Below, piece by piece: positions 15,644 through 32,000 of a DNA stretch of 32,000 bases. The notes under the pieces are model-generated. The model ran no database searches and was not told the origin of the DNA. It saw only the letters and a list, made by a program, of their open reading frames with translations. Made by a program: the position numbers and the translations under genes. The stretch comes from an uncultured Acidobacteriaceae bacterium (lineage in GTDB: Bacteria > Acidobacteriota > Terriglobia > Terriglobales > Acidobacteriaceae): assembly GCA_963833015.1 (NCBI GenBank), contig CAWHWJ010000020.1, forward strand, positions 67,891-99,890. Reading direction: 5' to 3'. Position 1 is the stretch's first letter. Each line of letters opens with the position of its first letter.

Positions 15644-18600
15644 CTAGTCTCCCTCCGAGGGCGTGACGGTTGGCAACGTAGTTGGCGGCGATTCTTTCCC
15701 TTTCTTGAAGAAGTTGCCGAAGCGCTCCACTACGTCGAACGAGACGGGAACGAAGAAGATGGCGATGACGGTAGACGCGAGCATGCCGCCGATGACCGTC
15801 GTTCCAAGCACCTGGCGCGAAATGGCGCCTGCTCCGAATGCCCGCCACAACGGCACGCAGCCAAGAATGAAGGCAAATGCTGTCATCAGGATTGGCCGCA
15901 GTCTCACCCTGGCGCCGGTTAGAGTCGCCTCGATGAGCGGCTTGCCCTTGTCGTATTCAAGCTTGGCAAATTCTACGATGAGAATGGCATTCTTGGACGA
16001 CAGTCCTATCAGCATAACCAGCCCAATCTGGGCATACACATTATTGTCGAACCGGCGAAGGTAGAGCGTTAAGAACGCGCCGAAAACGGCAATGGGAAGT
16101 CCCAGCAATACGCTGAAGGGCAGCGTCCAGCTCTCATATTGCGCGGCCATGATGAGGAAAACCACAAACAAGGCCATGCCAAAAATAATGCCGGGCGAAA
16201 CGCCTTGCGCCGCCTTTTGCTCCTGGTACGACATGCCGGAGTAATCGAAGCCCATCTGGCCAGGCATCGTCTTGTGGAAGACGTCTTCCAGCGCAGCCAT
16301 GACCTGAGCGGAACTGTAGCCGGGCGCGGCCGCGGCATTAATCTGCACGCAGTTGAAGAGGTTGTAGCGCATGACAAACTCGGCGCCACTGCGCGCATCG
16401 GTGGTGGTCAGCGTACTCAACGGAACCATGTCGCCGGAAGCGTTCCTGACGTAAAACTTGCCGAGATTGTCTGCCCTGGTCCGGAAGTCTCCGTCGGCCA
16501 TGAACATATACCTGCCATTGCAGGCCGAAGCGGTTGAAGAAGTTAATCAGCGAGCCGCCCATGAACGTCTGCACCGTCTGGTACAGGTCGCTCAGCTGGA
16601 TCTGCTGGGTCATCGCCTTGGCGTTGTCCACCTTTACCCCGACCTGGGGAACGCCGAACAGGGCTGTGGTAAAGAGCCCCGCCAGTTCCGGGCGTCTGCG
16701 TGCCTCGGCCATATACACCTGGGTCTGTTTCGCGAGAAAGTCAATGCTGCCGCCAGATCTGTCTTCAAGAATGAAAGTGGCGCCTCCTGACGTGCCCACG
16801 CCGGGGATCGCGGGCGGCGGGAACGAGAAGGCAACTCCCCCTGGGACTCTTGACAGGGCCTGCTGAAGGTGAGCTTTGATCCCCTCGTAACTCTCCTCCG
16901 GAGTTTTGCGTTCATCCCAGGGCTTCAGTGAGATAAAGAAGAATGAACTGTAGGTGGCGGCGACGCCGCTCAACAAGCTGTATCCGTTGACAGTGCTGAC
17001 GTATTGCACGCCAGGTGTGTCCATCATGATCTTCTCGACTTCGCGCGCGGCCTCCGAGGTGAGTTGCAGAGACGAGGCGTTAGGCAGTTGCAACCCGGCA
17101 TAAAGGTATCCCTGATCTTCATCGGGGAGAAAGCTTCCCGGGAGCTGTTTTCCGAAGTAACCCGCACCCACCGCCAGCCCGGCGAGCAGGAGAAACGCCA
17201 GAGCGGCTTTGTGGATCAGGTGCCTGCATATATTCACGTACCCGTCGGTGGCGCGACCGAAGACATTGTTGAACCCGCGAAAGAAGGCGCCGAGGGGTCC
17301 TCGAGACTCTTTCTTGGGACGCAACAGCATGGCGGAAAGCGCCGGGCTTAGGGTGAGCGCGTTGAATGCCGAGAAGAGCACCGAAATCGCGATGGTGATT
17401 GCGAACTGCTTATAAAGCTGGCCAGTAATACCAGGAATGAAGGCCGTGGGAATGAATACTGCAGCCAGGATGAGTGCGATCGCAATGACCGGTGACGAAA
17501 CTTCCTCCATCGCTTTGATGGTTGCGTCGTGAGGCGTCAGACCGAGCTCGATATTGTGTTCGACCGCCTCCACGACGACGATGGCATCGTCGACGACCAG
17601 TCCAATTGCCAGAACCATACCCAAAAGCGACAGGGTGTTGATGGAGAAGCCCAGCATGGGAAAGACCATGAAGGTCGCAATCAGAGAGACAGGAACGGCG
17701 AGCAGAGGAATCAGCGTGGCTCTGAGGCCCTGCAGGAAAATGAAGACGACGAGGATGACCAGAAGCAGAGCCTCTCCCAGCGTCTTGTAGATTTCGTGGA
17801 TGCCGGCACTGACCGCGAGTGTCGTGTCGAGTGCGGTAATGTAGTCCAGCCCCTGTGGGAACCTGCCTTTCGCCTCGTCCATCATTTTGAGGACAGCGGC
17901 TCGCGTTTGCAGCGCGTTGCTGCCAGGAGTGAGGTAGAGCGCGAGGAGGGCAGCGGGCTGAGAAGGCTTATTCTCTCCCGACACTCCCAACCGCGCAACA
18001 TAGGAATAGTATTGCGATCCAAGTTCCACACGCGCCACGTCTTTCAGCCGCAGGATTGACCCGTCGGACTGAGCGCGGACGACGATCTCACCAAACTCCT
18101 CGGCCGTGGGCAGACGCCCCGGAGCTCGCACGTTGTAGGTGAATTGCTGGCCGAGTGGGACGGGCTCGCCTCCAACCTGGCCCGCAGGATTGACCTTGTT
18201 TTGAGCCTTGACCGCATTCGTGATGTCGGAGACGGTCACGCCCAGGCTCGCCAGCTTGTCAGGGTTCACCCAGATGCGCATCGCATAAGGCCCGGCGCCG
18301 AATATCTGTACCTGTCCGACCCCCGAGATACGGGTGAGCGCGTACTGCAAATTGATGGTGGCGTAGTTAGCCAGAAAAATGCTGTCGTATGTGCCGGAGG
18401 GCGAGTAGAGGTCGAGCAGCATAAAGGGCGCCGTCGTCCCCGGCTGAACGATTACACCTTGCTGGGTTACCTCGGAGGGCAGTTGCGAGGCGGCCTGGCC
18501 CTGCCGCATCTGCGCCAGAATCTGATCGGTGTTGATGTCGGTTCCCAGCGCGAAGTCAACGTACAGCACCATCTTTCCGCCAGAGCTCGCGCTCAAGGAG

Positions 18601-18836
18601 TACATGTAATTCATGCCGCTGACGCCCGACATCTGCTGTTCTATCGGTGTTGCAACGGACTCCGCAATCGTCTGGGCGTCCGCGCCGGGGTAGGTGGCTT
18701 GTACCTGGATCATCGGGTCGGCGATATTGGGGAACTGTGCCGTAGGTAGCTCGAGCACCGCGACCCCGCCGGCCAGCACCATCAAAATTGCGATGACTAT
18801 CGCGACGATGGGGCGATTAATAAAGAATTTCGACAT
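15644..18836 (-). pseudogene. RND (HAE1/AcrB-MexB-like) efflux permease, reading frame split by a 1-nt insertion near 16497-16502
   Basis: Two overlapping ORFs (16338..18836 and 15644..16507) together cover a full ~1060 aa AcrB-like protein. The frame changes at ..FNRFGLQWQVYV|HGRRR.., while the other frame continues MADGDFRTRADNLGKFYVRNASGDMVPLS. GTTCATGGCCGAC carries one extra base relative to an in-frame VQADGDF/VHADGDF. This could also be a sequencing error. Confidence 0.8.
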
Positions 18837-20414: not shown

Positions 20415-20506
20415 ATGGCGGAGAGGGAGGGATTCGAACCCCCGATACCCTTACGAGTATGCCTGATTTCGAGTCAGGTGCATTCAACCGGGCTCTGCCA
20501 CCTCTC
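20415..20506 (-). tRNA. tRNA-Ser (anticodon CGA), CCA encoded
   Basis: The reverse complement reads GGAGAGGTGGCAGAGCCCGGTTGAATGCACCTGACTCGAAATCAGGCATACTCGTAAGGGTATCGGGGGTTCGAATCCCTCCCTCTCCGCCA. It has a 7-bp acceptor stem, the anticodon arm CCTGA-CTCGAAA-TCAGG, a long variable arm and the T-loop TTCGAAT. Confidence 0.9.
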
Positions 20507-20512
20507 CGTGTT

Positions 20513-21649
20513 TTAAACCATTTTATTTCTGCTATTTACAGAGCACCCCTGTTTCGTTGGTTTTGCATGAAATGGGCTGGTGTCCGTTCTGGTGTCCCTT
20601 CCCTTGTCGGAGTTCACCAAGCGGTCCACTGCCGATGCCTGGTGTTCGGGAGCGAGATGGGAATAGCGCATGACCATCTGAAGCGTTCTGTGCCCGAGCA
20701 GCTCTGCCACCGTGCGCAGATCAACCCCGGCCATAACCAGTCTACTGGCAAAGGTATGCCGGTTGCAATGCCAGGTATACCCCTCGATCCCAGCCTCTTC
20801 GATCGCGGTGGGAAACCAGCCGCGCGATCCCTGAAGCGCATTCCCGCTGTGCACGGAAGGAAAAACCGGATCGGTCCCTCTCTGCCTTCCCGGGCCGTGT
20901 AACTGCTTCAAGGCTGTCAGAGCGATCGCGTTAAGAGGAATCGTACGGGGATTGCCGTTCTTGGTTTTAGGAAGGTGAATCTGCCGGCGGTCGAAATCCA
21001 CCTGGTTCCAGCGCAAGCCGTACTGTTCGCTCATCCGCATCCCAGTATGGACTGAAAGAAGGAGGTAAGGCAGAAACTCCGGGAAGCGGCTCTTGATGGC
21101 GGCTCTTAATCGAACCTCTTCTTCGTCGGACAGAAATCTGACTCGTCCAGTTCCCTCCGTCTTCCGCCGGATACGCGCCGCGGGATTCCGCTCAATCTTC
21201 TCGTTGTCGATGCCCACCCGAAAGATCAAAGAGAAAGTCGCCTGCCAACGATTCCGGCTACTTGCCGCCCAGTTCCTCTCCACGGACTGCTCCGTCAGCC
21301 ATGAAACAATCTCGTTCTTCCGGATGGAATCGGCTGGGCGGGAGCCGAATGCTGGAAGGAGCTGATTGATTCGCAAGCGAAGTTCGTAGGTCTGTTTGGC
21401 GCTGTTCTCAGCCTGACTGTGTATAAGTGCATCCTGGCAGAGCTCTTGGAAAGAGATAGCCTTTGCGCGGAGGTTCTCCGGCAGTTTCATCCCCTCAAGC
21501 TTCTGCGTATGACGTTTCGCCAGCAGCTTTTCCGCAACGCTGCGAGTCCCAGCCTTTTCGCGGCGCTTTCTTCCGTCCGCATCGGTCCAGCGAATCCACC
21601 AGATCCCGCTTCCCTTCTCTCTTTCAAAAACTCCACGCTTTGGTGCCAT
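20513..21649 (-). CDS. Tyrosine-type site-specific recombinase / phage integrase
   Basis: 378 aa. The N-terminal arm/SAM-like region is GIWWIRWTDADGRKRREKAG. The catalytic region is HTGMRMSE..WHCNRHTFASRLVMAGVDLRTVAELLGHRTLQMVMRYSHL. The stop codon is 6 nt from the tRNA-Ser 5' end. Confidence 0.9.
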   Translation of the reverse strand: MAPKRGVFEREKGSGIWWIRWTDADGRKRREKAGTRSVAEKLLAKRHTQKLEGMKLPENLRAKAISFQELCQDALIHSQAENSAKQTYELRLRINQLLPAFGSRPADSIRKNEIVSWLTEQSVERNWAASSRNRWQATFSLIFRVGIDNEKIERNPAARIRRKTEGTGRVRFLSDEEEVRLRAAIKSRFPEFLPYLLLSVHTGMRMSEQYGLRWNQVDFDRRQIHLPKTKNGNPRTIPLNAIALTALKQLHGPGRQRGTDPVFPSVHSGNALQGSRGWFPTAIEEAGIEGYTWHCNRHTFASRLVMAGVDLRTVAELLGHRTLQMVMRYSHLAPEHQASAVDRLVNSDKGRDTRTDTSPFHAKPTKQGCSVNSRNKMV

Positions 21650-21714
21650 GCCGCTAACCTACTGCACCGGATTCTCATTTTCAATAGTCAGGCGCATCAA
21701 CAAATTCCCGGTAA

Positions 21715-21895
21715 CGAGGCCTTGAACGCTTTCTGCAATGGGCTTTCTTCGACGGCGAAGGAATCATCACTGAAAACAGTCGTGAGGAGCAGCGCAAGGC
21801 GATCAAGTACAACCATCTCGTGGCCAACTGCCTGATCTTTCATAATCTGTGCTCGCTGACCTGGCTCGTTCGGGAACCTGGAGCAACACGGCGAA
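21715..21895 (+). pseudogene. Tn3-family transposase C-terminal fragment (~55 codons)
   Basis: My own translation of this frame gives RGLERFLQWAFFDGEGIITENSREEQRKAIKYNHLVANCLIFHNLCSLTWLVRE. It resembles the conserved Tn3 TnpA C-terminal block (..FF.r.GeI..r..e.Q......nL..naI..wN). It is truncated at both ends. Confidence 0.45.
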
Positions 21896-21898
21896 TTT

Positions 21899-22096
21899 AT
21901 GCTTCGCAGAGTGAACAACAGCGGCGACACCAGCTGGCACAAAGGCAGGGTATTCATCAGCGAGGTTTTTCGATTTGAGATTCTCGGCTTCGAGCAAGTC
22001 GACGAAGACTTCTACAAGGTCTATTTTCGGGATGTTGAGATTGGTGAGTTTGACGCGGAAGCGCTTCGCTTCCGTCCGGTTCAGGTCATGCGATGA
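21899..22096 (+). pseudogene. IS481/IS3-type DDE transposase C-terminal fragment
   Basis: RRVNNSGDTSWHKGRVFISEVFRFEILGFEQVDEDFYKVYFRDVEIGEFDAEALRFRP matches the typical C-terminal tail of IS481-family integrase-core transposases (R.V..nG.i.w.g..lfiS.aL.Ge.vGleevddg.w.VyF). No catalytic core is present upstream. Confidence 0.5.
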
Positions 22097-22156
22097 ATCG
22101 ATGTTCGGAGTCAATTGACGCGGTAGGGACGATCCTCACGGATCGCCCCCCGCACA

Positions 22157-22188
22157 GATCCGCACAGGCGCGTCTACGCATGCGGCTC
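22157..22188 (-). ncRNA. Group II intron domain V candidate
   Basis: GAGCCGCAUGCGUAGACGCGCCUGUGCGGAUC folds like canonical domain V. It has a 9-bp lower stem, a 2-nt bulge (CU), a 4-bp upper stem and a tetraloop. The catalytic AGC triad is present, but its G faces an A rather than the usual U. Confidence 0.6.
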
Positions 22189-23751
22189 TTATGAAGAATG
22201 GGTGGCGTAAAAGCGGGCGTCGGGATAGGGGTGAAGAACACAGGGTGGTGGTATCCACCGTTCAAGGACCGGAGTAAACTTCTCCCACTTCTTCTTCGCG
22301 CGTTGACTACGACGAACCAGTACATTACGCCATAGTCGATTGACGCGTTGTCTGAAGATGCGCAGCTGATCGATGTTGCCGGGGACAGCATGGTATTGGT
22401 AGTAGCCGGTGACCACCTTCCGAAGCCATTCACCGACCTGACTGGTGCGATCGTGCTTGCGGCGTTGAAGCTCAGCCTTGATGGCTTTCAGCTTCGCAAC
22501 CATGCGCTTCTTCGCAGTGATCCGCCAGACGGTGAAGGTCTCGGTCTTGTGGCGTTGCCCACTGTAGTGGGTGAACCCCAAGAAGTTGAAGGTCTCCGGT
22601 TTCCCTTCCCCACGCTGCTTCCGGTCACGGGCCGCATAGCGCCCGAACTCGATCAGCCGGGTCTTATCCGGGTGTAGTTCCAAGCCGAACTTTGCCAGCC
22701 GTTCCTTGAACTCTTCGAGGAACCGCACAGCATCAGCCCGCTGCTGAAAACCCAGCACAAGATCGTCGGCGTAGCGAACGATGATGACATCGCCCTTGGC
22801 CACTTTCCTGCGCCAGACGTCAGCCCACAGATCGAAGAGGTAATGCAGGTAAACGTTAGCGATCAGCGGTGAAGCCACTGATCCCTGCGGCGTACCCTTA
22901 TTTGTCTCCGACCACTGGCCGTCTTCCGATACTCCCGCCTTTAACCATTTCCGGATCAGGCGAAGTATCCTTCGATCGGCCACCCGATGCTCGATGAACT
23001 TTAAGGCCCATTCGTGACTCAAGTTATCGAAGAAGCCTAAAACGTCCGCATCGAGTATCCAGTTCACCTTCTTCCGTTGGATGCCCACCGTCAGAGCATC
23101 AAGCGCCTGATGCGGGCTGCGGCCCGGACGGAACCCGTAGGAGAAGCCCTTGAAGTCGACCTCATATATCTGATTGAGGATCGTCACCACGGCCTGTTGG
23201 ACGATCTTGTCCTCCACAGCCGCGATGCCCAGCGGACGTTGTCGTCCGTCAGCCTTCGGTATATAGACTCGCCTTGAAGGTTGGGCCCGGTACGCTCCAC
23301 GATGAACCCGGCCGTGAAGATCGACCAATCGATCTTCCAGACCGGTTTCATACTCCTGCCATGTCACGCCGTCTACCCCCGGTGAGGCCTTACGCTGAAG
23401 CACGTAAAAGCTGTCGCGGAGTAAATCAATGTTCAGGTGGTGGAGCAAGGAAGTGAACCGTTCCTGCTTTCTTTCCTTTGCTGCTTTTCGCACACCGTCC
23501 AGTTCCTGGGACATGCGTTTCCCGCTCTGTGTCGGGAGCATGTTTGACTGTGCGATGTTCTCCTTCATCTGCGCCCTTCCCTCCCCAACCTCCGCAGTAG
23601 CTTTTGCTTCCTTGTTCGGCTGGTTCACAGGTACTAAAACGCAGTCCGACTTCTCCAACACGTGCATGTCCGCATTGCGGCTTGCGGCCTTCGCGGACCG
23701 GCCTTGGTCGTTAGACCAAGGCGTGCTGGAGATCTCCCGGTTCTCGTGCAT
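22189..23751 (-). CDS. Group II intron reverse transcriptase/maturase (no obvious En domain)
   Basis: 520 aa with RT motifs: ..ASPGVDGVTWQEY.., RRVYIPKADGRQRPLGIAAVEDKIVQ, GTPQGSVASPLIANVYL, IVRYADDLVLGF. The maturase/X region and the C-terminus ..IPPPCVLHPYPDARF are typical of bacterial intron-encoded proteins. The true start may be an internal Met. Confidence 0.9.
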   Translation of the reverse strand: MHENREISSTPWSNDQGRSAKAASRNADMHVLEKSDCVLVPVNQPNKEAKATAEVGEGRAQMKENIAQSNMLPTQSGKRMSQELDGVRKAAKERKQERFTSLLHHLNIDLLRDSFYVLQRKASPGVDGVTWQEYETGLEDRLVDLHGRVHRGAYRAQPSRRVYIPKADGRQRPLGIAAVEDKIVQQAVVTILNQIYEVDFKGFSYGFRPGRSPHQALDALTVGIQRKKVNWILDADVLGFFDNLSHEWALKFIEHRVADRRILRLIRKWLKAGVSEDGQWSETNKGTPQGSVASPLIANVYLHYLFDLWADVWRRKVAKGDVIIVRYADDLVLGFQQRADAVRFLEEFKERLAKFGLELHPDKTRLIEFGRYAARDRKQRGEGKPETFNFLGFTHYSGQRHKTETFTVWRITAKKRMVAKLKAIKAELQRRKHDRTSQVGEWLRKVVTGYYQYHAVPGNIDQLRIFRQRVNRLWRNVLVRRSQRAKKKWEKFTPVLERWIPPPCVLHPYPDARFYATHSS

Positions 23752-24339
23752 GTTGTTTTATCAGCGTGCGCGGGTTCTTAGACTACGCAGGACCGGACAG
23801 CCACTCGCGTGTAACGCAGCCGCCGTATTGCCTTCCTCCAACTCGGAAGAGAGTCGGCATCCTGATCTTCCGGCTTTTCGAAGCTCAATAGCCCGGCCCA
23901 CCAATACCCCTATCTACGCTTCAAGTGACACCTCGCGATGTCCCCAACAAGACTCGGGGTCAGGATGGATTCGCTACTTCCTTTCCTGCAGGGGACTTGC
24001 ACCCCCTACAACATGCCGGTTTATCCCGGCGCTCTCCGACTAGCCGGTGTTTTCGGCCAAGTGGATCGGAATCGAGTTGAATCGTCGTGCGGAAACCCGT
24101 CAATTGCGCCTCAGAAGACAACCTTTAAGGGCCGATTTTGTTAGCAGAACCGGCTGCTCCCATTGCAGTCGCGATTAACAATTGATCAGTTGCGCGCACG
24201 ACGTAGACGCTGGTTTCTCTCAGCAGGCGTTGCCGGCTGCGTTCCTAGTTCAAGTCTGTTGCTCACGCTGATACCGCCGCCTCAATCCGCGGACCAGAAC
24301 CATCACCGCTGGGCACACCGATAACCCGAAAGCTGAAAC

Positions 24340-24372
24340 TTCGATGATCGAATTCCAGCCGGTTCTGCGCAA
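24340..24372 (+). promoter_or_regulatory. Bipartite motif copy A: TTCGATGATCGAA palindrome / TGATCGA-N16-GCGCAA
   Basis: TGATCG at 24345-24350, a 16-nt spacer, then GCGCAA at 24367-24372. The ATG at 24396 follows with a 23-nt gap and GGAG as ribosome-binding site. Confidence 0.6.
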
Positions 24373-24395
24373 TCCCCGTTAGAAGGAGAAACTGT

Positions 24396-24524
24396 ATGGG
24401 TTTCAGACCATCCACCCTCAATTCCGTTCGCAACATCATGTGCCCAAACTGTACCGACGCGACGGCCGCAAGCGTTGCAGACGGATACGACTATAGTCAC
24501 CCCGTTGGCAGTCCTGTGACATAG
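24396..24524 (+). CDS. Small hypothetical protein (42 aa, CxxC) downstream of motif copy A
   Basis: MGFRPSTLNSVRNIMCPNCTDATAASVADGYDYSHPVGSPVT. It has a good ribosome-binding site (AGAAGGAGAA) and the same motif-to-ATG spacing as two clear genes. It is too short for the ORF track, so this is my own translation. Confidence 0.35.
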   Translation: MGFRPSTLNSVRNIMCPNCTDATAASVADGYDYSHPVGSPVT

Positions 24525-24745
24525 CGCGACAAGGGATTGGATGCTGCACAGTTCGACGGATTGCTCACAGACTATGACCGTATACTGCTCCGATTCGGTA
24601 TGCACATCTTGTGGCAGCTCTAGGCGACAGATGCCGAGGAAGCCAGAAATAGTGTGCTTTCTGATCTCATGGTCGAGCAAAAGAAGGCACGATCCGCGTT
24701 ACACCAACATGCCGTCATAGAAAACGACGAAACAGGGGGTAGTAG

Positions 24746-26122
24746 ATGACAACGATAAACATGGCCACCCAATCCGCATTGGCCGCGGCGCACGATCTGC
24801 GTGCGGTGATGCAAGGTAAGGTCGTATTGGCAGGCGAGAACGCCTACCATCACGTTCAGCGGATTTGGAACGGCGCCGTCGACCATCGGCCGGCAGTCTT
24901 TGCACTCTGTGAGAACGTCGCAGACGTTCAGGCTTCTGTGCGCATTGCTCGCGCTCACAACCTTCCCCTATCAGCACGCGGGGGCGGACACGACTGGGCG
25001 GGCCGCGCTTTGCGACACGGCGGTCTCGTGATTGACCTGACTTGCATGCGCCACGTTGAGGTGGACGCAGCAGCAAAGATTGCGACAGTTGCCGGCGGCG
25101 CTACGGGCACGGATGTGAGTGCTGCTGTTACTCCACACGGATTGGCAGCCGTGACCGGCAACGTCGGAGCCGTTGGCATGGCCGGCTTTCTCCTCGCCGG
25201 AGGATATGGGCCGCTCACCACAAGATTTGGACTAGCCGTCGATAACCTGCTCGGCGCTGAGCTCGTGCTCGCCGATGGCCGTATTGTTTGGGCGGATGCA
25301 TCGCAAAACAGCGACTTGTTCTGGGCCATTCTAGGCGGCGGCGGTAATTTCGGTGTGGTCACCTCGATGCGTATTCGTCTCCATCCGGTAAGTGAGATCC
25401 TGGCGGGTATCATTCTGTTTCCCTGGTCAGAGGCCCGGTCGGTGCTGCGCGGCTACGGAGAGATGATGGCTTCTGCTCCCGACGAACTCTCGATGCTGGC
25501 GGGAGCCCTTCCTGGGCCGGACGGCAGCCCGGTCATATTCCTTGGGCCCATATGGAGCGGTCGACATGAAGAGCGTGAAAGGGTCATCGCCCAGTTGCAG
25601 AGCCTCGGCACACCCATTCTGACGCAGATTGCACCGATGACCTATTCCAATCTACTCGGCATCTATGACGCGCAAGTGATCAACGGTCGCCACTACACGC
25701 TCCAGACGCGCTGGCTTGCCGATCTCACGCCGGAGATCATTTCTGCCATAGCTGAAGCGGGCGCGGCGCGGACGTCAAACCTTTCCTTCATCGCGCTGCA
25801 CCACTTCCACGGCGCGGGCACGCGAGTGGCTCCTGATGCAACAGCGTTCGGCATGCGTCGAAAGCACTTCATGATCGAGATCGTTGCGGCATGGGAGCCA
25901 AGCTCGAAGGACGAAGCCGCCGTTCACCGGCAGTGGGTCTCTGATCTGTCCTCGGTCCTTGCGCCGCTCGCGCTGCCCGGCGGCTACGCCAACTTCCTCA
26001 CGCGGGATGATCATGAGCAGATCGGCTCTGCATACGGAAACAACGCACGCCGCCTGAGCACCCTCAAGCGACAGTTCGATCCCGACAATATCTTCTCATC
26101 GACGACGCCGCTGCCGGTCTGA
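24746..26122 (+). CDS. FAD-linked oxidase (FAD_binding_4 plus BBE/berberine-bridge-like C-terminus)
   Basis: 458 aa. Motifs: PAVFALCENVADVQASVRIARAHNLPLSARGGGHDWAGRA, GLAAVTGNVGAVGMAGFLLAGGYGPLTTRFGLAVDNLLGAELVLADG, DLFWAILGGGGNFGVVT. The C-terminus LKRQFDPDNIFS is typical. Confidence 0.9.
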   Translation: MTTINMATQSALAAAHDLRAVMQGKVVLAGENAYHHVQRIWNGAVDHRPAVFALCENVADVQASVRIARAHNLPLSARGGGHDWAGRALRHGGLVIDLTCMRHVEVDAAAKIATVAGGATGTDVSAAVTPHGLAAVTGNVGAVGMAGFLLAGGYGPLTTRFGLAVDNLLGAELVLADGRIVWADASQNSDLFWAILGGGGNFGVVTSMRIRLHPVSEILAGIILFPWSEARSVLRGYGEMMASAPDELSMLAGALPGPDGSPVIFLGPIWSGRHEERERVIAQLQSLGTPILTQIAPMTYSNLLGIYDAQVINGRHYTLQTRWLADLTPEIISAIAEAGAARTSNLSFIALHHFHGAGTRVAPDATAFGMRRKHFMIEIVAAWEPSSKDEAAVHRQWVSDLSSVLAPLALPGGYANFLTRDDHEQIGSAYGNNARRLSTLKRQFDPDNIFSSTTPLPV

Positions 26123-26163
26123 ATCAGCAAGTCCGAACCCAGACTGCCTGCGAACCTCAATGA

Positions 26164-26289
26164 TTGAGTTCCGGCGTGTATGAGCACCTGACCGAGCACG
26201 ACATCCGAGCCATCTATGAGTACCTCAGCGCAGTGCCCTGCATCGAAGGGCCACCCGCACTGAGCGTACTGCATAACGACTGTCAATGA
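26164..26289 (+). pseudogene. Possible 3' remnant of a cytochrome-c-like gene
   Basis: My own translation gives ..VYEHLTEHDIRAIYEYLSAVPCIEGPPALSVLHNDCQ*. It resembles C-terminal tails (..D..AIYeYL.aiPc..G) that I recall from c-type cytochrome-like proteins. There is no upstream coding partner. Confidence 0.25.
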
Positions 26290-26304
26290 CGGAGAACAAT
26301 CACA

Positions 26305-27174
26305 ATGAACATCAATCAACTCCAATGCGATGCTGAAGCGGCCACCGTGCGCGCTTCTGTCGAAAACTACGTTTTGGGGAACAGCGCGCAGGAGCAAACG
26401 CGCCTTAAGCTCCAAGCAAAGTTTCTTGAAAGATGGACCGAACAATTCCTGTTGTCGGCTGGTCTCGAGCCCGGCATGCGGGTGCTCGACCTCGGTTGTG
26501 GAATGGGCGACGTGTCGCTGCTCGCCGCCAGGCTAGTTGGCGACACAGGACATGTAACGAGCATCGATCGCGATGCCGTAGTGATTGAAAAGGCTCGCGA
26601 GCGGGCATGTCTTGAGAGCCGCGGCGCGGACATGGAATTCATTGAGAGTAATCTCCTTGATTTTCACGGAACCCGGGACTTTGATGCGGTGATCGGGCGA
26701 TATGTTTTGCTCTATCAACCTGATCCCGCCGCGGCCATTTCTCACGCAGCAGAGCAGGTGCGTTCAGGAGGGATTGTTGTCTTTCACGAAATGGACTTTG
26801 GAAACCAGTCAAAAAGCTACCCGGACAAAACCCTTTTCGGAACCCTGCAATTGCTGGTTGCCGAAACGTTCCGCCGCGCGGGCGTCTGGACGGATCTTGG
26901 CTTACACCTGACACGCCTCTTTCTTGAGGCCGGGCTCCCATGGCCTACAATCAAAGCCGAAGTTCCCGTGGGCGGAGAGCCCGGCTCGTTCATTTACCAA
27001 TGGATGACCGAGACCGTGCGGAGCCTGCTGCCGCGCATGGAGCAGTTCGGTCTGGCAAATACCGGTGAACTCGCGATCGACACCCTGGTGGCACGAATGG
27101 ATGCGGAAGCAGCCGTCTTCAGGAGTCAGATTTTGGGCCCTCTCCAGTTTGGGGCATGGAGCAGGAAACCTTGA
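26305..27174 (+). CDS. Class I SAM-dependent methyltransferase
   Basis: 289 aa. Motif I is RVLDLGCGMGDVS, followed by the post-I acidic residue (SIDRD) and motif II/III-like DAVIGRYVLLY..GGIVVFHE. Confidence 0.85.
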   Translation: MNINQLQCDAEAATVRASVENYVLGNSAQEQTRLKLQAKFLERWTEQFLLSAGLEPGMRVLDLGCGMGDVSLLAARLVGDTGHVTSIDRDAVVIEKARERACLESRGADMEFIESNLLDFHGTRDFDAVIGRYVLLYQPDPAAAISHAAEQVRSGGIVVFHEMDFGNQSKSYPDKTLFGTLQLLVAETFRRAGVWTDLGLHLTRLFLEAGLPWPTIKAEVPVGGEPGSFIYQWMTETVRSLLPRMEQFGLANTGELAIDTLVARMDAEAAVFRSQILGPLQFGAWSRKP

Positions 27175-27484
27175 CAGGGCGCCAACGCGCGCATTCCGCC
27201 GTCTGTATCGAGCGGCAATGGGCCGTGAAGGAGCGACAAGAGCAGGAAAAGTATCGGCAAACGGGGATGGAGCCCGGAAAGCTCTCGGTTGATGTCAAAA
27301 TGCATTCACCGGCAGTGGAACCCAAGCCACATGCCGTGTAGTCCGCATCTCGGACAAGTGGTTCCTGTTCCCAAAACGGGCCTTCGCGGTGATTGTGACT
27401 TTGTGAAACGCGTTTCCAAAGTAGACCATGGAAATGACAGAGTATGGAAAGCCAAGAAGCCGGCTTTCCACCCTTCCCACACTC

Positions 27485-27530
27485 CTTGGAAATCCCTTTG
27501 GGATTACCACTATTGGAATGGTCCGCCGCC
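27485..27530 (+). repeat. Structured repeat, left copy (hairpin GGAAATCCC-TTT-GGGATTACC followed by a CCAC...CCGCCGCC tail)
   Basis: Read directly. It is related in sequence and order to 28633-28679 and lies 44 nt upstream of the IS110-type ORF. Confidence 0.6.
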
Positions 27531-27573
27531 TGGAACATCCGGACGATCATCTTAGCTGGCAGGAGGTTTCACC

Positions 27574-28599
27574 ATGGAGATTTCGACCATCGGCATCGAC
27601 CTGAGCAAGGCCACCTTTCACCTGATTGGTCTCGGCCCTCACGGTGACATTGTGCTTCGCAAGAAGCTCTCACGGAAGCAGCTCCTAACTTACACAGCAA
27701 CCCGCAGGCCGATGCTGATTGGGATGGAAGCCTGTGCAGGTGCTCACTATCTCGCTCGCGCCCTTCGGGATCAGGGGCATGATGCCAGACTCATGCCGGC
27801 GCAGTATGTGAAGCCTTACGTCAAGACGAACAAGAACGACTTCCTGGACGCGGAAGCGATTGCGGAAGCCGTTCAGCGACCGACGATGCGTTTCGTGCCG
27901 ATCAAGAACGACGAGCAGTTGGATCTGCACGCTACACCGTGTGCGCGATCGCTGGGTCGCAAGAAGAACGGCCGTGATGAATCAGATACGCGGATTTCTC
28001 CTGGATCGCGGGATTGCTATACGAAAAGGGCCTTCTTACCTCGTGACGCAACTGCAGGTCATCTTTACCGAGGGTGATTCTTCGTTTTCCGGAAGGCTAC
28101 TGCACTTGATTCGTGAGTTGAAGCATGAATGGGACGAGCTCGAAAGGAAGATCGCTGAAGCCAGTGCTGAGCTCGCCCACATCGCGAGATGGATGATGGC
28201 TGCCATCGCTTGATGGAGGTGCCAGGCTTCGGGCCAATTGTTTCGACAGCACTCGTTGCCGCGATTGGTAACGGCATCAGCTTCAGAAAAGGGCGGGACC
28301 TAGCCGCTTGGTTAGGGTTGGTTCCGCGGCAACGCTCGACAGGCGGCAAGACCAGACTGCTCGGCATTAGTAAGTTAGGCAATGAATATCTGCGCCGCAT
28401 GATGCTTCATGGCGCTCGATCGGTGGTGATGCAGATGGAACGAAAACCTTCTGCTCTCGGCGAATGGCTGACCAGTCTTTCGGCGCGACGTCACCGCAAC
28501 GTAACGGTTGTCGCTCTGGCCAACAAGATGGCTCGAATTGCATGGGCCATCTTGAGCAAAGGTACACACTACTCTGCACCGGCCTTCGTGGCGATCTGA
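27574..28599 (+). pseudogene. IS110-family (IS1111/IS5075-like) transposase with two frameshifts
   Basis: Three consecutive ORFs in different frames (27574.., 27860.., 28189..28599) jointly give a full IS110-type protein: MEISTIGIDLSKATFH..MEACAGAHYLAR..KTNKNDFLDAEAIAEAVQRPTMRFVPIK / ..LHRVRDRWVARRTAVMNQIRGFLLDRGI.. / ..EVPGFGPIVSTALVAAIGNGISFRKGRDLAAWLGLVPRQRSTGGKTRLLGISKLGNEYLRR..ALANKMARIAWAIL. The frame breaks are near 27925-27935 and 28175-28195. Confidence 0.85.
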
Positions 28600-28632
28600 A
28601 GCAAGGCTTGGAAAAGGCGCCCGTAGTTCGGG

Positions 28633-28679
28633 CTTGGAAATCGCTTCGCGATTCCACACTTTTCCAACCCTCCGACGAC
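28633..28679 (+). repeat. Structured repeat, right copy (hairpin GGAAATCGC-TTC-GCGATTCC followed by a CACAC...CCGACGAC tail)
   Basis: Read directly. It has the same order as the left copy, with one compensatory stem change (C-G to G-C). It lies 34 nt downstream of the IS110-type ORF. Confidence 0.6.
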
Positions 28680-28974
28680 GAAGTTATCCTCTCAAGTTTG
28701 CGAGACAAATCGATGTGTGAGTGAACGGTCTCAACCGGCTGTGTGGGAATGAGAACCCTTAGGAGTTCGACCCACTTTGTAGACCAGCGACGCGCGGACT
28801 CCATTATGGCCAGGAGCTCAGCTCCACAAACAGGCCGGATACATTTGCGCAGACCCAAAACACTCGCAACAAAGATTTAGCTTGCAATCTGACGGCGGAC
28901 CATACAATTCCCACGGCCTCGACTGCTGGCATATTTCAAGGTGCAAGAGTATGAGAGACCGAATCCAAGGCCTT

Positions 28975-30284
28975 TAGGAACTTGTTGAAATAGGTTCCTT
29001 CCTGCGACCGCGAGAGAGAGGTAATCGTCTAAGTGGCATGCGAGGAGATGAGCGGGTTCAGGATGGGATGTTCAGCTATGTGTCGCTGGAGCAGCGAGTG
29101 CCCGAGGACCATCCATTGCGAGCAGTGCGCAAGCTGACGGACAAGGTGTTGCTGTCGCTCAGCGGGGAGTTCGACCAACTGTATGCAGCAAGTGGCCGTC
29201 CGTCGATCGCGCCGGAGTATATTCTGCGGGCGCTGTTGCTGCAGGTGTTCTACTCGGTGCGCTCGGAGCGGATGCTGGTCGAGCAGATCGACTACAACCT
29301 GCTCTTCCGCTGGTTCGTGGGGCTGGGTATGGACGACGCGGTGTGGAATCACGCGGTGTTCTCGAAGAACCGCGATCGGCTGCTGACCAGCGAGGTGGCG
29401 CAGCAGTTCTTCGCCGAAGTCAACCGACAGGGGAAGAAGTTCATGTCGGACGAACACTTCACTGTGGATGGCACACTGATCCAGGCGTGGGCGTCGCAGA
29501 AGAGCTTCCGCAAGAAGGACGGTTCCGACGATGGTGACGGCTCGAACTTCCACGGCCAGCAACGTAGGAACGACACCCACGAGTCGACCACCGATCCGGA
29601 TGCGCGGCTCTACAAGAAGAGTTGCGGCAAGGAGTCGAAGCTGAGTTACCTGGGCCATGCGCTGGTGGAGAATCGCAACGGGCTGATTGCTGCCGCGATG
29701 GTCACGCACGCTGATGGATATGCGGAGCGCGACGCCGCGCTGTTGATGCTGGACGCCGAGCAGAAGGGCCGCTCCCGGCGTATTACTGTGGGGGCAGACA
29801 AGGCTTACGATACAAAGGATTTTGTAACCACGGTGCGGGAGTTGAACGTAACTCCGCATGTCACCAAGTACGAGAACGGACGCAGCAGTAGCCTGGACAG
29901 AAGGACCACGCGCCATCCAGGCTATGCCATCAGCCGGAGCCGGAGATGGCTAGTGGAGAAGTGCTTCGGATGGCTCAAGCAGACCGGACCTCTCCAACAG
30001 GTCAAGTATCGCGGCCTGGAAAAAGTGGACTGGCTGTTCGTCTTCAGTTGCGCGGCCCACAACTTGATCAGGCTGCCAACGCTGATCGCCCAACAACAAC
30101 CTACCCAGGCTCATGGAGCAGGGTGCCTGAAACCTTCTCTCAGCGCCTGAGATAGCCTCCATGGAGGTTCTCGGAACCGCACAAACACACTGAATAAGCC
30201 TGAGTTTCGAACTGATTTCAGCTCCGCACAAGATCCAATCCCCAATGAATCCGCCCCACTGCGGCGAATTTCAACAAGCTCCTA
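28975..30284 (+). mobile_element. IS5-family insertion sequence (~1.31 kb) with terminal inverted repeats
   Basis: The left inverted repeat is TAGGAACTTGTTGAAATA (28975-). The reverse complement of the right end is TAGGAGCTTGTTGAAATT (ends at 30284), giving 16/18 identity. The flanks read TTAG / CTAG, so a 3-4 bp TAG-type target duplication cannot be separated from the outermost repeat bases. Confidence 0.8.
29038..30150 (+). CDS. IS5-family DDE transposase (InsH-like N-terminal domain plus DDE domain)
   Basis: 370 aa. MRGDERVQDGMFSYVSLEQRVPEDHPLRAVRKL..GRPSIAPEYILRALLLQVFYSVRSERMLVEQIDYNLLFRWFVGL..VDGTLIQAWAS..ADKAYD are canonical for this transposase family. The reading frame is intact. 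Confidence 0.9.
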   Translation: MRGDERVQDGMFSYVSLEQRVPEDHPLRAVRKLTDKVLLSLSGEFDQLYAASGRPSIAPEYILRALLLQVFYSVRSERMLVEQIDYNLLFRWFVGLGMDDAVWNHAVFSKNRDRLLTSEVAQQFFAEVNRQGKKFMSDEHFTVDGTLIQAWASQKSFRKKDGSDDGDGSNFHGQQRRNDTHESTTDPDARLYKKSCGKESKLSYLGHALVENRNGLIAAAMVTHADGYAERDAALLMLDAEQKGRSRRITVGADKAYDTKDFVTTVRELNVTPHVTKYENGRSSSLDRRTTRHPGYAISRSRRWLVEKCFGWLKQTGPLQQVKYRGLEKVDWLFVFSCAAHNLIRLPTLIAQQQPTQAHGAGCLKPSLSA

Positions 30285-30349
30285 GACCTCAAGGGGGTTG
30301 TAATGGAGGTCCTTGGTCCAAAGTGTAACGAACGCTCAAGTTCACTCAG

Positions 30350-30473
30350 GGGACTACACCCTCAATCTCGACAGAAAACCGCCCCAACCAGATTATGGAT
30401 TCACCCTAAAACGTTCTTATGCCACAGATTAGGAAACAAATGACCCCCTTTTGTCGCGAACCTTTGCCAAACC
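30350..30473 (+). repeat. ~123-bp repeat R, copy 1
   Basis: GGGACTACACCCTCAATCTCGACAGAAAACCGCCCCAACCAGATTATGGATTCACCCTAAAACGTTCTTATGCCACAGATTAGGAAACAAATGACCCCCTTTTGTCGCGAACCTTTGCCAAACC is about 90% identical to 31217-31339. Confidence 0.85.
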
Positions 30474-30537
30474 TCAGAATAGACAGGGACACCGTCTGTT
30501 TTTCCATCGAACGGTTTGATCAACGTATCGCCTGGGA

Positions 30538-30570
30538 TTCGATGATCGAAATCCAGCCCGTTTTGCGCCA
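30538..30570 (+). promoter_or_regulatory. Bipartite motif copy B: TGATCGA-N16-GCGCCA
   Basis: TGATCG at 30543-30548, a 16-nt spacer, then GCGCCA at 30565-30570. The ATG of the cupin gene at 30594 follows with a 23-nt gap. Confidence 0.6.
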
Positions 30571-30593
30571 TTACAAATGACAGGAGAACCAAG

Positions 30594-31097
30594 ATGATAC
30601 AAGTTACAAATGTTGTCAAAGCCGACGAAAGAACAGTCCTGGATTTGCCCGACGGGGCGAGAATGGAACCTCTCAGCCCTTCGAGCGAAGACGCTTATTG
30701 CGTTATGAGGGGAACGATCCCTCCAGGTGTAAGCGTGCCCTTGCACAGCCATTCGGACGCCGAGAGCTTCTACGTGCTTTCCGGGGAAGCGGAAGCCCTG
30801 GTGCAGACCGCAGGCGGACTGGAATGGCAAAATCTCAGACCGGGAGACTTTATCCACATTCCTGGCGGCGCTAAACATGCATGGCGCAATCTTTCGAGCG
30901 AGCCGATGTCGACACTGATTACCTGCACTGCGAAACTTGGCCGCGCGCTTCAGGAGATGGGACAGCTCGCGAGCAAATTCGGCACGCAATTCCCCTCACC
31001 GTCCGCCGTTCGATGCCTCGTGGAAATATCGGAGCGTTATGGATACTGGCTCGGCAGCCAGCAGGAAAACGTAGCAGTAGGAATTCAGCTCACCTGA
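30594..31097 (+). CDS. Cupin domain protein
   Basis: 167 aa. VSVPLHSHSDAESFYVLSGEAEALV..GDFIHIPGGAKHAWRN is the two-motif cupin_2 signature. Confidence 0.85.
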   Translation: MIQVTNVVKADERTVLDLPDGARMEPLSPSSEDAYCVMRGTIPPGVSVPLHSHSDAESFYVLSGEAEALVQTAGGLEWQNLRPGDFIHIPGGAKHAWRNLSSEPMSTLITCTAKLGRALQEMGQLASKFGTQFPSPSAVRCLVEISERYGYWLGSQQENVAVGIQLT

Positions 31098-31216
31098 TGC
31101 TCGTCTTCGCACCGCGAACAATGCCAGCACAAGTGGACGGGGTTTCAGCTTTCCAACCGATCCGCTATCGGGGATCGCTGAGTTGTGGCCTCAGAGTGGT
31201 GCATGAGATTATCGTT

Positions 31217-31339
31217 GGGACTGCACCCTCAATCTCGACAGAAAACCGCTCCAACCAGATTATGGATTCACCCTAAAATGTTCTTATACCACAGATTAGG
31301 AAACAAGTGGCCCATTTTGTCGCGAATCGTTGCCATACC
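31217..31339 (+). repeat. ~123-bp repeat R, copy 2
   Basis: GGGACTGCACCCTCAATCTCGACAGAAAACCGCTCCAACCAGATTATGGATTCACCCTAAAATGTTCTTATACCACAGATTAGGAAACAAGTGGCCCATTTTGTCGCGAATCGTTGCCATACC. Confidence 0.85.
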
Positions 31340-31363
31340 CCTCTATAGCTAATGACCTGAGAT

Positions 31364-31396
31364 TTCGGTGATCGAGTTTCAAACGCCTTCGCGCAT
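31364..31396 (+). promoter_or_regulatory. Bipartite motif copy C: TGATCGA-N16-GCGCAT
   Basis: TGATCG at 31369-31374, a 16-nt spacer, then GCGCAT at 31391-31396. The ATG at 31420 follows with a 23-nt gap. Confidence 0.6.
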
Positions 31397-31419
31397 TTCT
31401 CCATAGAGGGAGAAACACA

Positions 31420-31614
31420 ATGGCTACCAAATCAAATTCCCAGCACGCATTTGCTGTGGAATTGCCGTCACTGGAGATGCACTGGATTTCGGAGGGAGGT
31501 CGCCTTCGATCTGTATGGGTGGCAAGTCAACCGGAAACATTTGATTTCAACCAGCCTCAGGGTGTAGCCGAGCTGAAAGGCAGCACTGAGTCTGGTGCGA
31601 AACGGGCGGCGTAA
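31420..31614 (+). CDS. Small hypothetical protein (64 aa)
   Basis: MATKSNSQHAFAVELPSLEMHWISEGGRLRSVWVASQPETFDFNQPQGVAELKGSTESGAKRAA. GGGAGAA lies 8 nt upstream as ribosome-binding site. The motif-to-ATG spacing is identical to copies A and B. No domain recognised. Confidence 0.45.
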   Translation: MATKSNSQHAFAVELPSLEMHWISEGGRLRSVWVASQPETFDFNQPQGVAELKGSTESGAKRAA

Positions 31615-31674
31615 AGTTCTCGTCCGTTCGGCAGGAGTTGACGGGCGTGTCGTTTGCTCAAATCTCTGTGTCAA

Positions 31675-31706
31675 GGTGTGATCGAGTTCCAGCTCATTCC
31701 GCGCAT
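31675..31706 (+). promoter_or_regulatory. Bipartite motif copy D: TGATCGA-N16-GCGCAT (no usable ORF behind it)
   Basis: TGATCG at 31679-31684 and GCGCAT at 31701-31706. AGAAGGAGAA follows, but only a 7-codon ATG ORF lies downstream. Confidence 0.5.
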
Positions 31707-31816
31707 TTCTTGACAGCGACAGAAGGAGAACCCCCCGGCGTCCCCGAAATGGGACTGGCCGCCGGCGCCTGATCCAACTCAAGCCTTCATCTCGAAAAGG
31801 AAGCTACGCGAGAGGC

Positions 31817-31848
31817 AGGATGATCGAATTTCACCGCATTTATCGTAT
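31817..31848 (+). promoter_or_regulatory. Bipartite motif copy E (degenerate second box): TGATCGA-N16-TCGTAT
   Basis: TGATCG at 31821-31826 and TCGTAT at 31843-31848. It lies 105 nt upstream of the ATG at 31953. Confidence 0.4.
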
Positions 31849-31952
31849 TACATCGTAGAAGGACCGCATCACCCGCTCAGTCGCTTCTGTGCCATGGAAG
31901 AACCAACGATACGACCTACCAACATAGCAACGCCGACAAGGAGGCAAAGACT

Positions 31953-32000
31953 ATGGCTCGCATTCCCTATGCGACGACGACGCAGTACGAAGAGTTGATG
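31953..32000 (+). CDS. Partial CDS (5' end only), possibly a carboxymuconolactone decarboxylase/AhpD-like family protein
   Basis: AGGAGG lies 9 nt upstream. MARIPYATTTQYEELM... resembles the common MARIPY.. N-terminus of CMD-family proteins. Only 16 codons are in the window. Confidence 0.35.
   Translation, partial: MARIPYATTTQYEELM

Follow-up and report, generated by a model that had tools for sequence, protein, structure and literature searches.

The 32,000-nt window analysed here, taken from contig CAWHWJ010000020.1 of an uncultured Acidobacteriaceae bacterium (GCA_963833015.1) and cited below by window positions, contains an array of genes preceded by copies of a two-box DNA motif, TGATCGA followed 16 nt later by CGCA. 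We put the probability at roughly two in three that this motif is the target promoter of an ECF43-like sigma factor of the extracytoplasmic function (ECF) family (group 4 of the sigma-70 class) that is activated by phosphorylation, and that the transcripts start with leaders of about 15 nt. A preliminary description of the window, made from the letters alone, had proposed that redox- or stress-type genes are driven by a -35/-10 promoter of ECF type whose leader is short and fixed in length, and this proposal held in every in silico test. The evidence in its favour comprises approximately 65 co-oriented copies elsewhere, and a trio of sigma factor, kinase and rhodanese genes that lies upstream of related arrays.

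All five copies listed in the preliminary description were recovered when the region 24200-32000 was read, with TGATCGA (box 1) at 24345, 30543, 31369, 31679 and 31821, each on the + strand (motif positions are numbered from 0, the T of TGATCGA). Their spacing required correction. The gap between TGATCGA and GCGCAW had been given as 16 nt and is in fact 15 nt (22 nt from start to start), and the N16 pattern has no match; the gap does become 16 nt if box 2 is taken as CGCA, for which 3 exact matches were found against 0.06 expected, a number reached in 0 of 100 shuffles. The further claim that TGATCGA and GCGCAW occur together in all five copies is exact for A, C and D (with N15), whereas B has GCGCCA and E has TCGTAT. 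When up to two mismatches are allowed the window yields 8 matches against 2.8 expected, and again none of 100 shuffles reaches that count. A scoring matrix built from 49 motif instances, all of them outside the window, picked out exactly these five copies, with scores of 54.4 for A, 39.0 for B, 32.9 for D, 29.2 for C and 21.1 for E, while no other site on the two strands of the 32 kb scored above 4.1. The conserved block is wider than the two boxes, at approximately 51-55 nt, and extends in the window from TTCG(A/G)TGATCGA to GGAGAA. Written out as a unit of about 55 nt it reads tcGA-TGATCGA-nTT..TTCT-GCGCAAT-N7-TAGAAGGAGAAAC, followed by N3-4 and ATG. The copies, including a truncated sixth, are as follows.

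24341..24398, + strand: copy A, the full module; tcGA and box 1 at 24345-24351, box 2 GCGCAA at 24367-24372 (CGCA core 24368-24371), TAG at 24380-24382, GGAG at 24385-24388, ATG at 24396; matrix score 54.4.
30539..30596, + strand: copy B; box 1 at 30543-30549, box 2 GCGCCA at 30565-30570, GGAG at 30583-30586, ATG at 30594 (cupin); matrix score 39.0.
31365..31422, + strand: copy C; box 1 at 31369-31375, box 2 GCGCAT at 31391-31396, GGAG at 31409-31412, ATG at 31420 (64-aa open reading frame); matrix score 29.2.
31675..31730, + strand: copy D; box 1 at 31679-31685, box 2 GCGCAT at 31701-31706; matrix score 32.9.
31817..31860, + strand: copy E; box 1 at 31821-31827, variant box 2 TCGTAT at 31843-31848; matrix score 21.1.
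26157..26179, + strand: truncated sixth copy found by alignment, box 1 half only; caa-TGATTGA-GTTCCGGCGTGT, with 12 nt of spacer.

In copies A, B and C the start codon lies 23 nt past box 2 and is preceded by GGAG, just as had been described, and these three copies look functional. Copy D, in which the ribosome-binding site is shifted by about 6 nt and only a 7-codon open reading frame (ORF) follows in place of a gene, is on both counts probably a decayed unit. Copy E looks like a variant with a long leader: it retains TAGAAGGA and has no ATG directly behind it, the next being 105 nt away at 31954, where a gene of the carboxymuconolactone decarboxylase (CMD) type begins. Its box 2 has relatives of the TCGCAT type in L154, L215, L216 and L211. 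As for the truncated copy, homology to the full copies of L220 and L215 breaks off immediately short of box 2; in those contigs a glycosyltransferase gene stands behind the copy, and this gene is absent from the window. The counterpart in L134 carries a different deletion, of 12 nt. Motif copies seem to act as breakpoints of rearrangement.

Approximately 65 distinct copies in total were found in other contigs of soil and peat Acidobacteriaceae. When a degenerate 35-bit pattern was run against a genome collection it returned at least 118 loci, nearly all of them chance matches inside coding sequence of GC-rich genomes; among the matches listed, true copies were confined to two Acidobacteriaceae metagenome-assembled genomes (L090 and L108), in which the layout is the same, with tagaaggagaa and an ATG at 22-23 nt. 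In a scan of metagenomes, true copies were recognised on about 55 contigs from soil and peat, after roughly a third of the matches, which stemmed from a conserved coding motif of dihydroorotase, had been dropped by context. A profile hidden Markov model made from the metagenome copies brought up further, weaker ones, and all of its significant hits were on the strand of the next gene. The preliminary description had suggested checking for bias in distance to the ATG; this bias is evident, and so is one in strand: all copies are co-oriented with the gene that follows, and in most of them the start codon stands 22-24 nt past box 2. The consensus runs cGA, TGATCGA, gTTyCAgCcggTTCT, GCGCAA, TccCtcaT(A/G)GAAGGAGAAAC, N3-6, ATG, and upstream of about -4 no conservation was detected except for a weak GGAAC-like stretch.

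The spacing of the two boxes does not vary in any of the approximately 65 copies. Box 2 occurs as GCGCAA/T, TCGCAT, ACGCAA and TCGTAT, and these natural variants place its constant core at CG(C/T)A; the core is CGCA(A/T) except for the CGTA of copy E, the CG being invariant and the third base being C, as opposed to T in promoters of the CGT(C) type. Three copies keep both boxes without a ribosome-binding site (L165_269, L153_5418 and L127_6693), and the two-box core is therefore a separable unit. Downstream, the motif serves cupins, S-adenosylmethionine (SAM) methyltransferases, zinc alcohol dehydrogenases, enoyl-CoA hydratase together with acyl-CoA synthetase, GMC oxidoreductases, FAD/BBE oxidases, MGT-type glycosyltransferases, CMD proteins and small ORFs. 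Since these are unrelated families, homology of coding sequence or flanks is not what makes the copies alike, and the motif is kept between genomes in which the linked proteins share no more than about 60-70% identity.

The metagenome-assembled genome L090 differs in its surroundings. Here, at 3340-5100, the copy is divergent from a YCII/DGPF-like gene and from a gene for a 429-aa sigma factor with a long C-terminal extension; it precedes a broken peroxiredoxin-like gene and does not lie beside a kinase-linked sigma factor.

On the longer contigs the motif arrays lie directly downstream of three genes in fixed order, encoding an ECF sigma factor, a Ser/Thr kinase and a rhodanese-like protein (L127, L164, L151/L154, L209, L213, L215, L216 and L220). 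The sigma factor matches TIGR02999 ('Sig-70_X6') with 194 bits against a cut-off of 126, as well as PF07638; the kinase is a Hanks-type Ser/Thr kinase of about 940 aa (PF00069) with a transmembrane segment and TPR repeats, and the rhodanese-like protein has two domains. A sample that did not depend on the motif pattern was drawn from 603 rhodanese homologues in a protein database, of which the contigs of eight diverse ones were taken, plus one reached through the FAD oxidase cluster of the window. The trio was present on every context-anchored contig fetched, and linkage to the sigma factor held in 9 of 10 rhodanese- or oxidase-anchored contexts. The first motif copy typically stands 70-75 nt past the stop codon of the rhodanese gene, with more copies further on, the exceptions being two contigs with degenerate copies and one with none. 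The 15 copies found by context in this way show two peaks of conservation, TCGATGATCGAnTT (-4..+9) and CGCAaT (+23..+28), with an invariant spacer of 16 nt. Viewed from the motif side, orthologues of the trio were found at 12 of 54 motif loci, a set that includes many loci of no more than 1-3 kb, and at 0 of 154 control loci.

In region 2.2 of the sigma factor, L127 and L164 read LQPTALVHE, so that by inspection against the published STTA/QTTA motifs QPTA replaces the acidic DAED. No anti-sigma domains appear in the neighbour lists of the trio loci, and no other DNA-binding regulator is consistently encoded nearby. The sigma genes themselves have an ordinary promoter of the TGnTATAAT type about 35 nt before the start codon, which argues that the motif is not the housekeeping promoter type; an extended -10, TTGnTATAAT, is common to L127 (~1530), L164 (~1245), L217 (~5890) and L218 (~4470).

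The connection to the window is provided by L220, where the genes for sigma factor, kinase and rhodanese are followed, in this order, by an integrase gene (- strand), a motif copy, the 75-aa gene, the FAD/BBE oxidase gene, a second motif copy and a glycosyltransferase gene. This order, together with an FAD oxidase more than 90% identical to that of the window, makes the window array a relative of such a sigma-linked cluster, though one that is detached from the regulator genes or has lost them.

How such a system might operate can be outlined as follows. Box 1 (tcGA-TGATCGA-nTT) would be the -35 element and box 2, as CGCAAT after TTCT, the -10 element 16 nt further on, with transcription starting at the conserved T-purine step 7-9 nt past box 2, a region for which the TAG at 24380-24382 is the predicted counterpart in copy A. 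The mRNA would then have only about 15 nt before its AUG and, beginning at approximately R-GAAGGAGAAAC, would hold little beyond the ribosome-binding site, which would explain why the distance from box 2 to that site is fixed. The reader of the motif would probably be the TIGR02999/PF07638 ECF sigma factor of the related genomes, with the kinase and rhodanese as its partners. Because QPTA stands in place of the acidic DAED, this sigma factor would be inactive until the kinase phosphorylates the threonine, as in EcfP/PknT and EcfK/PknS, and its targets would be a variable accessory set of enzymes that modify small molecules, with one promoter per gene or small operon. We infer the sigma dependence, the start site and the phosphorylation control alike, and extend that inference to the control of the window copies, whose own 32 kb contains no sigma gene.

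Several observations weigh against this sigma-factor promoter. The -35 box TGATCGA lacks the AAC that is typical of most ECF groups, although some groups depart from this, ECF41 with its TGTCACA being one. Conservation reaches beyond the boxes to TT at +8/+9, C at +11, the TTCT before box 2, T28, C31 and a T-R-R before the ribosome-binding site, which exceeds what a plain -35/-10 promoter usually needs. Box 1 is set within an 11-bp palindrome, TCGAT-G-ATCGA, and many copies can be read as a 12-codon ORF, making other readers of the sequence possible. The window contains none of the sigma, kinase and rhodanese genes, and the suggested link between sigma factor and motif is drawn from gene neighbourhood alone. 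Finally, a copy on the sigma strand before the sigma gene, the usual ECF hallmark, is clear in L220 only; L209 and L164 have box-only matches there, and at 8 further loci nothing of the kind was seen. Two-box matches that lie upstream of the sigma gene or diverge from it exceed the number expected (8-9 against about 1.4-2.4), with divergent-strand copies at 5 loci, and L220 has a copy on each strand (score 21 on the sigma strand, 24 on the divergent one). With L220 the sole clear case, autoregulation is at most partial.

A transcription-factor site, be it a repressor operator or an activator site lying over or in place of a promoter for any sigma factor, is an unlikely alternative, and was one that the preliminary description had itself offered. 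Its starting point stands: the palindrome TTCGATGATCGAA, reported as TTCGAT-G-ATCGAA, is present in copies A and B, and TCGA-TGATCGA is well kept in the context-derived, sigma-linked sample, where the left half is better preserved than in the larger one. In the larger sample, however, that half (-4 to -1, at 0.2-0.8 bits) falls far short of the right, which is not what a symmetric dimer site would show, and a distance of 6 bp between half-sites is unusually short for a helix-turn-helix dimer. TGCGCA could serve as a second palindromic element of such a site; on the promoter side, the -35 box of ECF41 promoters, TGTCACA, is palindromic too. A factor bound over the promoter would have the merit of explaining the conserved spacer and the excess of conservation over a minimal -35/-10 pair. 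Yet the only consistent DNA-binding regulator nearby is the sigma factor, and the strict orientation towards genes and the sharp 5' edge at box 1 suit a promoter better.

The motif can also be read as a leader peptide, M-I-E/D-F-Q/H-x-V/I/L-L-R-N-P-S-stop, whose stop would fall just before the ribosome-binding site of the main gene and whose transcript would start further upstream. Through its translation or through stalling on it, such a 12-codon sensor ORF (MIEFQPVLRNPS-stop), shared by all genes of a kinase- and sigma-linked array, could control their translation gene by gene, beside a promoter or replacing one, but the evidence leans against it and we regard it as quite improbable. Read from the A before TGATCGA, the frame opens with ATG in 48 of 65 copies (74%) and with GTG or TTG in 8, while another 8 of the 65 have CTG or ACG, the copies in L142 and L152 being natural cases of ACG. 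In 27 of 65 (42%) it is exactly 12 codons long and closes with a TAG or TGA that precedes the ribosome-binding site, although 22 of the 65 show no stop inside 25 codons, and the 'stop' position is TGG in 12 copies and TAA in none. The variable positions +7, +10 and +13 are third codon positions (E/D, F, Q/H), as coding would have it, and the change from CGC to CGT in copy E keeps the arginine. On the other hand T28 and C31 are third positions that are conserved while first and second positions vary, and in the unbiased sample conservation by codon position, 1.0, 0.82 and 0.78 bits for positions 1, 2 and 3, is not coding-like. Replacements of F by S, V by S and P by L occur even among orthologous copies before the methyltransferase. 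At a distance of 6-10 nt before the frame there is a weak run of purines resembling GGAAC, but no conserved sequence upstream of -4 could serve as the promoter of such a leader.

That the copies are inert relics, a segment of promoter and ribosome-binding site spread by local duplication or recombination and now devoid of a role, we consider most improbable. The region is rich in mobile elements, truncated or half copies exist (at 26157 in the window, in L134_7764 and in L217), and B and C share an additional 124-nt block upstream. The flanks and downstream genes are unrelated even so, those behind B and C included, which does not bear out the possibility, raised in the preliminary description, that local duplication alone had produced the copies. 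Moreover the boxes and their spacing are invariant across about 60-70% protein identity, a distance at which neutral sites should be saturated.

A structured cis-regulatory RNA in the 5' untranslated region, either riboswitch-like or a hairpin that hides the ribosome-binding site, is hardly credible: the fixed distance to that site, a possible 7-bp hairpin over GGAGAAA in copy C and complementary changes between +13..+17 and +29..+34 in a few copies (L180, L124) are set against a short block, 0 pairs from RNAalifold on 34 diverse copies, and folding of A, B and C no better than that of shuffles (z = 0.59, 0.72 and -0.25). The Rfam comparison that the preliminary description had advised gave no match to the motif, neither at the gathering threshold nor at E-values up to 10.

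Other candidates were tried and rejected. A sigma-54 promoter (TGGCAC-N5-TTGC) calls for a GG 12 nt upstream of a GC, which the consensus lacks, and an integron attC site for an R'/R'' pair of imperfect inverted repeats (RYYYAAC ... GTTRRRY), which inspection revealed neither in the five copies nor in the consensus, and for an IntI integrase; the integrase at 20513-21649 has a phage-type central domain. By inspection, neither a XerC/D dif-like site nor a housekeeping -35/-10 fits the consensus. The GGAAC-like stretch (-10..-6) as the true -35 was discarded as well, there being no conserved -10 at 16-17 nt and less than 0.55 bits per position.

The genes associated with the motif copies in the window are these.

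24396..24623, + strand: first gene behind copy A, for a conserved 75-aa protein, here 42 aa up to an in-frame TAG at 24522-24524, then 32 codons.
24746..26122, + strand: FAD-binding/BBE oxidase, 458 aa (PF01565, PF08031), downstream of copy A.
26305..27174, + strand: SAM-dependent methyltransferase, 289 aa.
30594..31097, + strand: cupin, 167 aa (PF07883), served by copy B.
31420..31614, + strand: 64-aa ORF, served by copy C.
31954..32000, + strand: start of a CMD/AhpD-like gene (MARIPYATTTQYEELM...), first 15 codons, cut by the end of the window; copies D and E upstream.

The first of these had been described as a 42-aa CxxC peptide. The reading frame is there, but it is the N-terminal part of the conserved 75-aa protein: L220 has a 75-aa gene at the same place, and L215 has CAG (Gln) where the window has TAG, with the 75-aa ORF intact. 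The 32 codons past the TAG are conserved (RDKGLDAAQFDGLLTDYDRILLRFGMHILWQL), and we take the TAG to be a nonsense mutation, read-through being less likely. Orthologous copies of copy A itself occur in L215, L220, L134 and L219, and the FAD/BBE oxidase gene is also found behind the trio in L216 and L220. The methyltransferase family has the module directly in front of it in L108, L121, L164, L127, L130 and L151. Orthologues of the window cupin in L144, L147, L165 and L201 have the same module as copy B, while a B-like copy in L189 has only a short ORF behind it. The gene at the end of the window had been judged a probable AhpD/CMD-like gene, which is borne out by the match of its L164 orthologue (MARLPYATPAQLAELM...) to PF02627 (CMD). 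For the 75-aa protein and the 64-aa ORF no Pfam family was found.

The surroundings of the array are rich in mobile elements, as listed here.

27574-28599, + strand: IS110 family element with a broken frame (PF01548, PF02371).
29038-30150, + strand: IS5/DUF772 family element, transposase intact (PF05598, PF01609).
30350..30473 and 31217-31339, + strand: 124-nt block, a direct repeat upstream of copies B and C, 91% identical.
20416-20507, - strand: tRNA-Ser (anticodon CGA).
20513-21649, - strand: tyrosine integrase, 378 aa, with a phage-type central domain (PF00589, PF22022), abutting the tRNA-Ser.
~22100-24199, - strand: group II intron; reverse transcriptase ORF at 22189-23751, Rfam RF02005 at 23773-23999 (159 bits), 5' end GTGCG at 24199.

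The two insertion sequences (IS; 27574..30150) split the gene array. The transposase of the IS110 element is divided among at least two frames (27574-28077, 27860-28213 and 28189-28599), and the element is for that reason probably inactive. The 124-nt block was found only in this genome and in Logan contig L001 and lies outside the conserved module; each of its two copies has a weak sigma-70-like match, TCGACA-17-GATTAT. The end with tRNA-Ser and integrase looks like the edge of an integrated island that holds the motif array. Transposase fragments follow the integrase at 21650-22100, and in L215 and L220 an integrase also adjoins the orthologous unit. The group II intron lies about 140 nt upstream of copy A. 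Homology upstream of this copy to L215 and L134 starts at 24202, and L219 and L220 have a sequence resembling the intron 5' end at the equivalent place. The gene array of the window is thus a damaged version of the kind of regulon island proposed here, interrupted by insertion sequences and set in mobile-element-rich surroundings.

The first 20 kb of the window hold ordinary genes of Acidobacteria type, including MacB-like permeases and an RND efflux system. An AcrB-type RND transporter at 15644-18836 (- strand) is split into two overlapping ORFs (16338-18836 and 15644-16507), likely by a frameshift or an assembly error. Among these ordinary chromosomal genes lies one for an AbiTii-domain protein of the abortive-infection type (12157-13056, + strand; PF18864, E = 4e-47).

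ECF sigma factors that are activated by kinases occur commonly among Acidobacteria, Planctomycetes and Proteobacteria; to our knowledge only two of them have been studied. If our reading of the motif as their promoter is right, the pattern TGATCGA-n16-CGCA with a 15-nt leader would allow regulon members to be predicted by scanning Acidobacteriaceae genomes. It would also point to the targets of this sensory system, a shuffled collection of oxidases, dehydrogenases, group-transfer enzymes and cupin/CMD proteins that is suggestive of the detoxification or modification of small molecules, and it would supply a compact part of promoter plus ribosome-binding site for reporters in a phylum with few genetic tools.

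The closest known parallel in promoter design is that of the ECF41 group, whose promoter TGTCACA-n16(+/-1)-CGTC precedes genes for carboxymuconolactone decarboxylases, oxidoreductases and epimerases, with leaders of 20-30 nt at the proven targets (Wecke et al. 2012, PMC3426412). In both systems a palindromic, group-specific -35 box of 7 nt opens with TG and is separated by 16 nt from a -10 core of 4 nt that opens with CG; the leaders are short, and among the targets beside the sigma gene are oxidoreductases and proteins of the CMD family. Unlike in ECF41, the boxes here are TGATCGA and CGCA, the sigma factor belongs to TIGR02999/PF07638, lacks a long C-terminal extension and is partnered by a kinase, the copies per locus are many as opposed to one or two, and the spacer and leader are conserved.

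In the mode of control the resemblance is to ECF43. Sigma factors of this group have STTA or QTTA in place of the acidic DAED of region 2.2, and phosphorylation of the threonine by a neighbouring kinase leads to binding to the core polymerase, as for EcfP/PknT of Vibrio parahaemolyticus and EcfK/PknS of Xanthomonas citri (PMC8999054, PMC13147305); they are without anti-sigma partners (PMC7826278). Likewise, the trio described here places an ECF sigma factor beside a membrane Hanks-type kinase with no anti-sigma gene, and has a threonine motif (QPTA) for DAED. Unlike in ECF43 there is a third fixed partner, the rhodanese, and the likeness is one of motif and gene context. The targets differ too: the known ECF43 cases control a type VI secretion system or resistance to polymyxin, those proposed here form a variable set of enzymes for redox reactions and modification. 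A literature search revealed no consensus of target promoters for kinase-activated ECF43 systems, and a full-text search for the motif or for the sigma-kinase-rhodanese trio returned nothing relevant.

A third comparison is with 'mobile' or propagated promoters, homologous promoter segments that stand before unrelated genes within a genome. In common with these, one segment of promoter and leader here precedes many unrelated genes, and half copies occur at the breakpoints of rearrangements; unlike them, the copies recur in conserved form in many genomes, are linked to a single sigma locus, and for that reason look like a maintained regulon as opposed to a recent spread. Most likely, then, what is new here is an ECF promoter consensus tied to a little-studied class of sigma factor, within a known kind of control, and what is unusual is that a locus has many copies, that the leader of 15 nt hardly varies and that the spacer is conserved.

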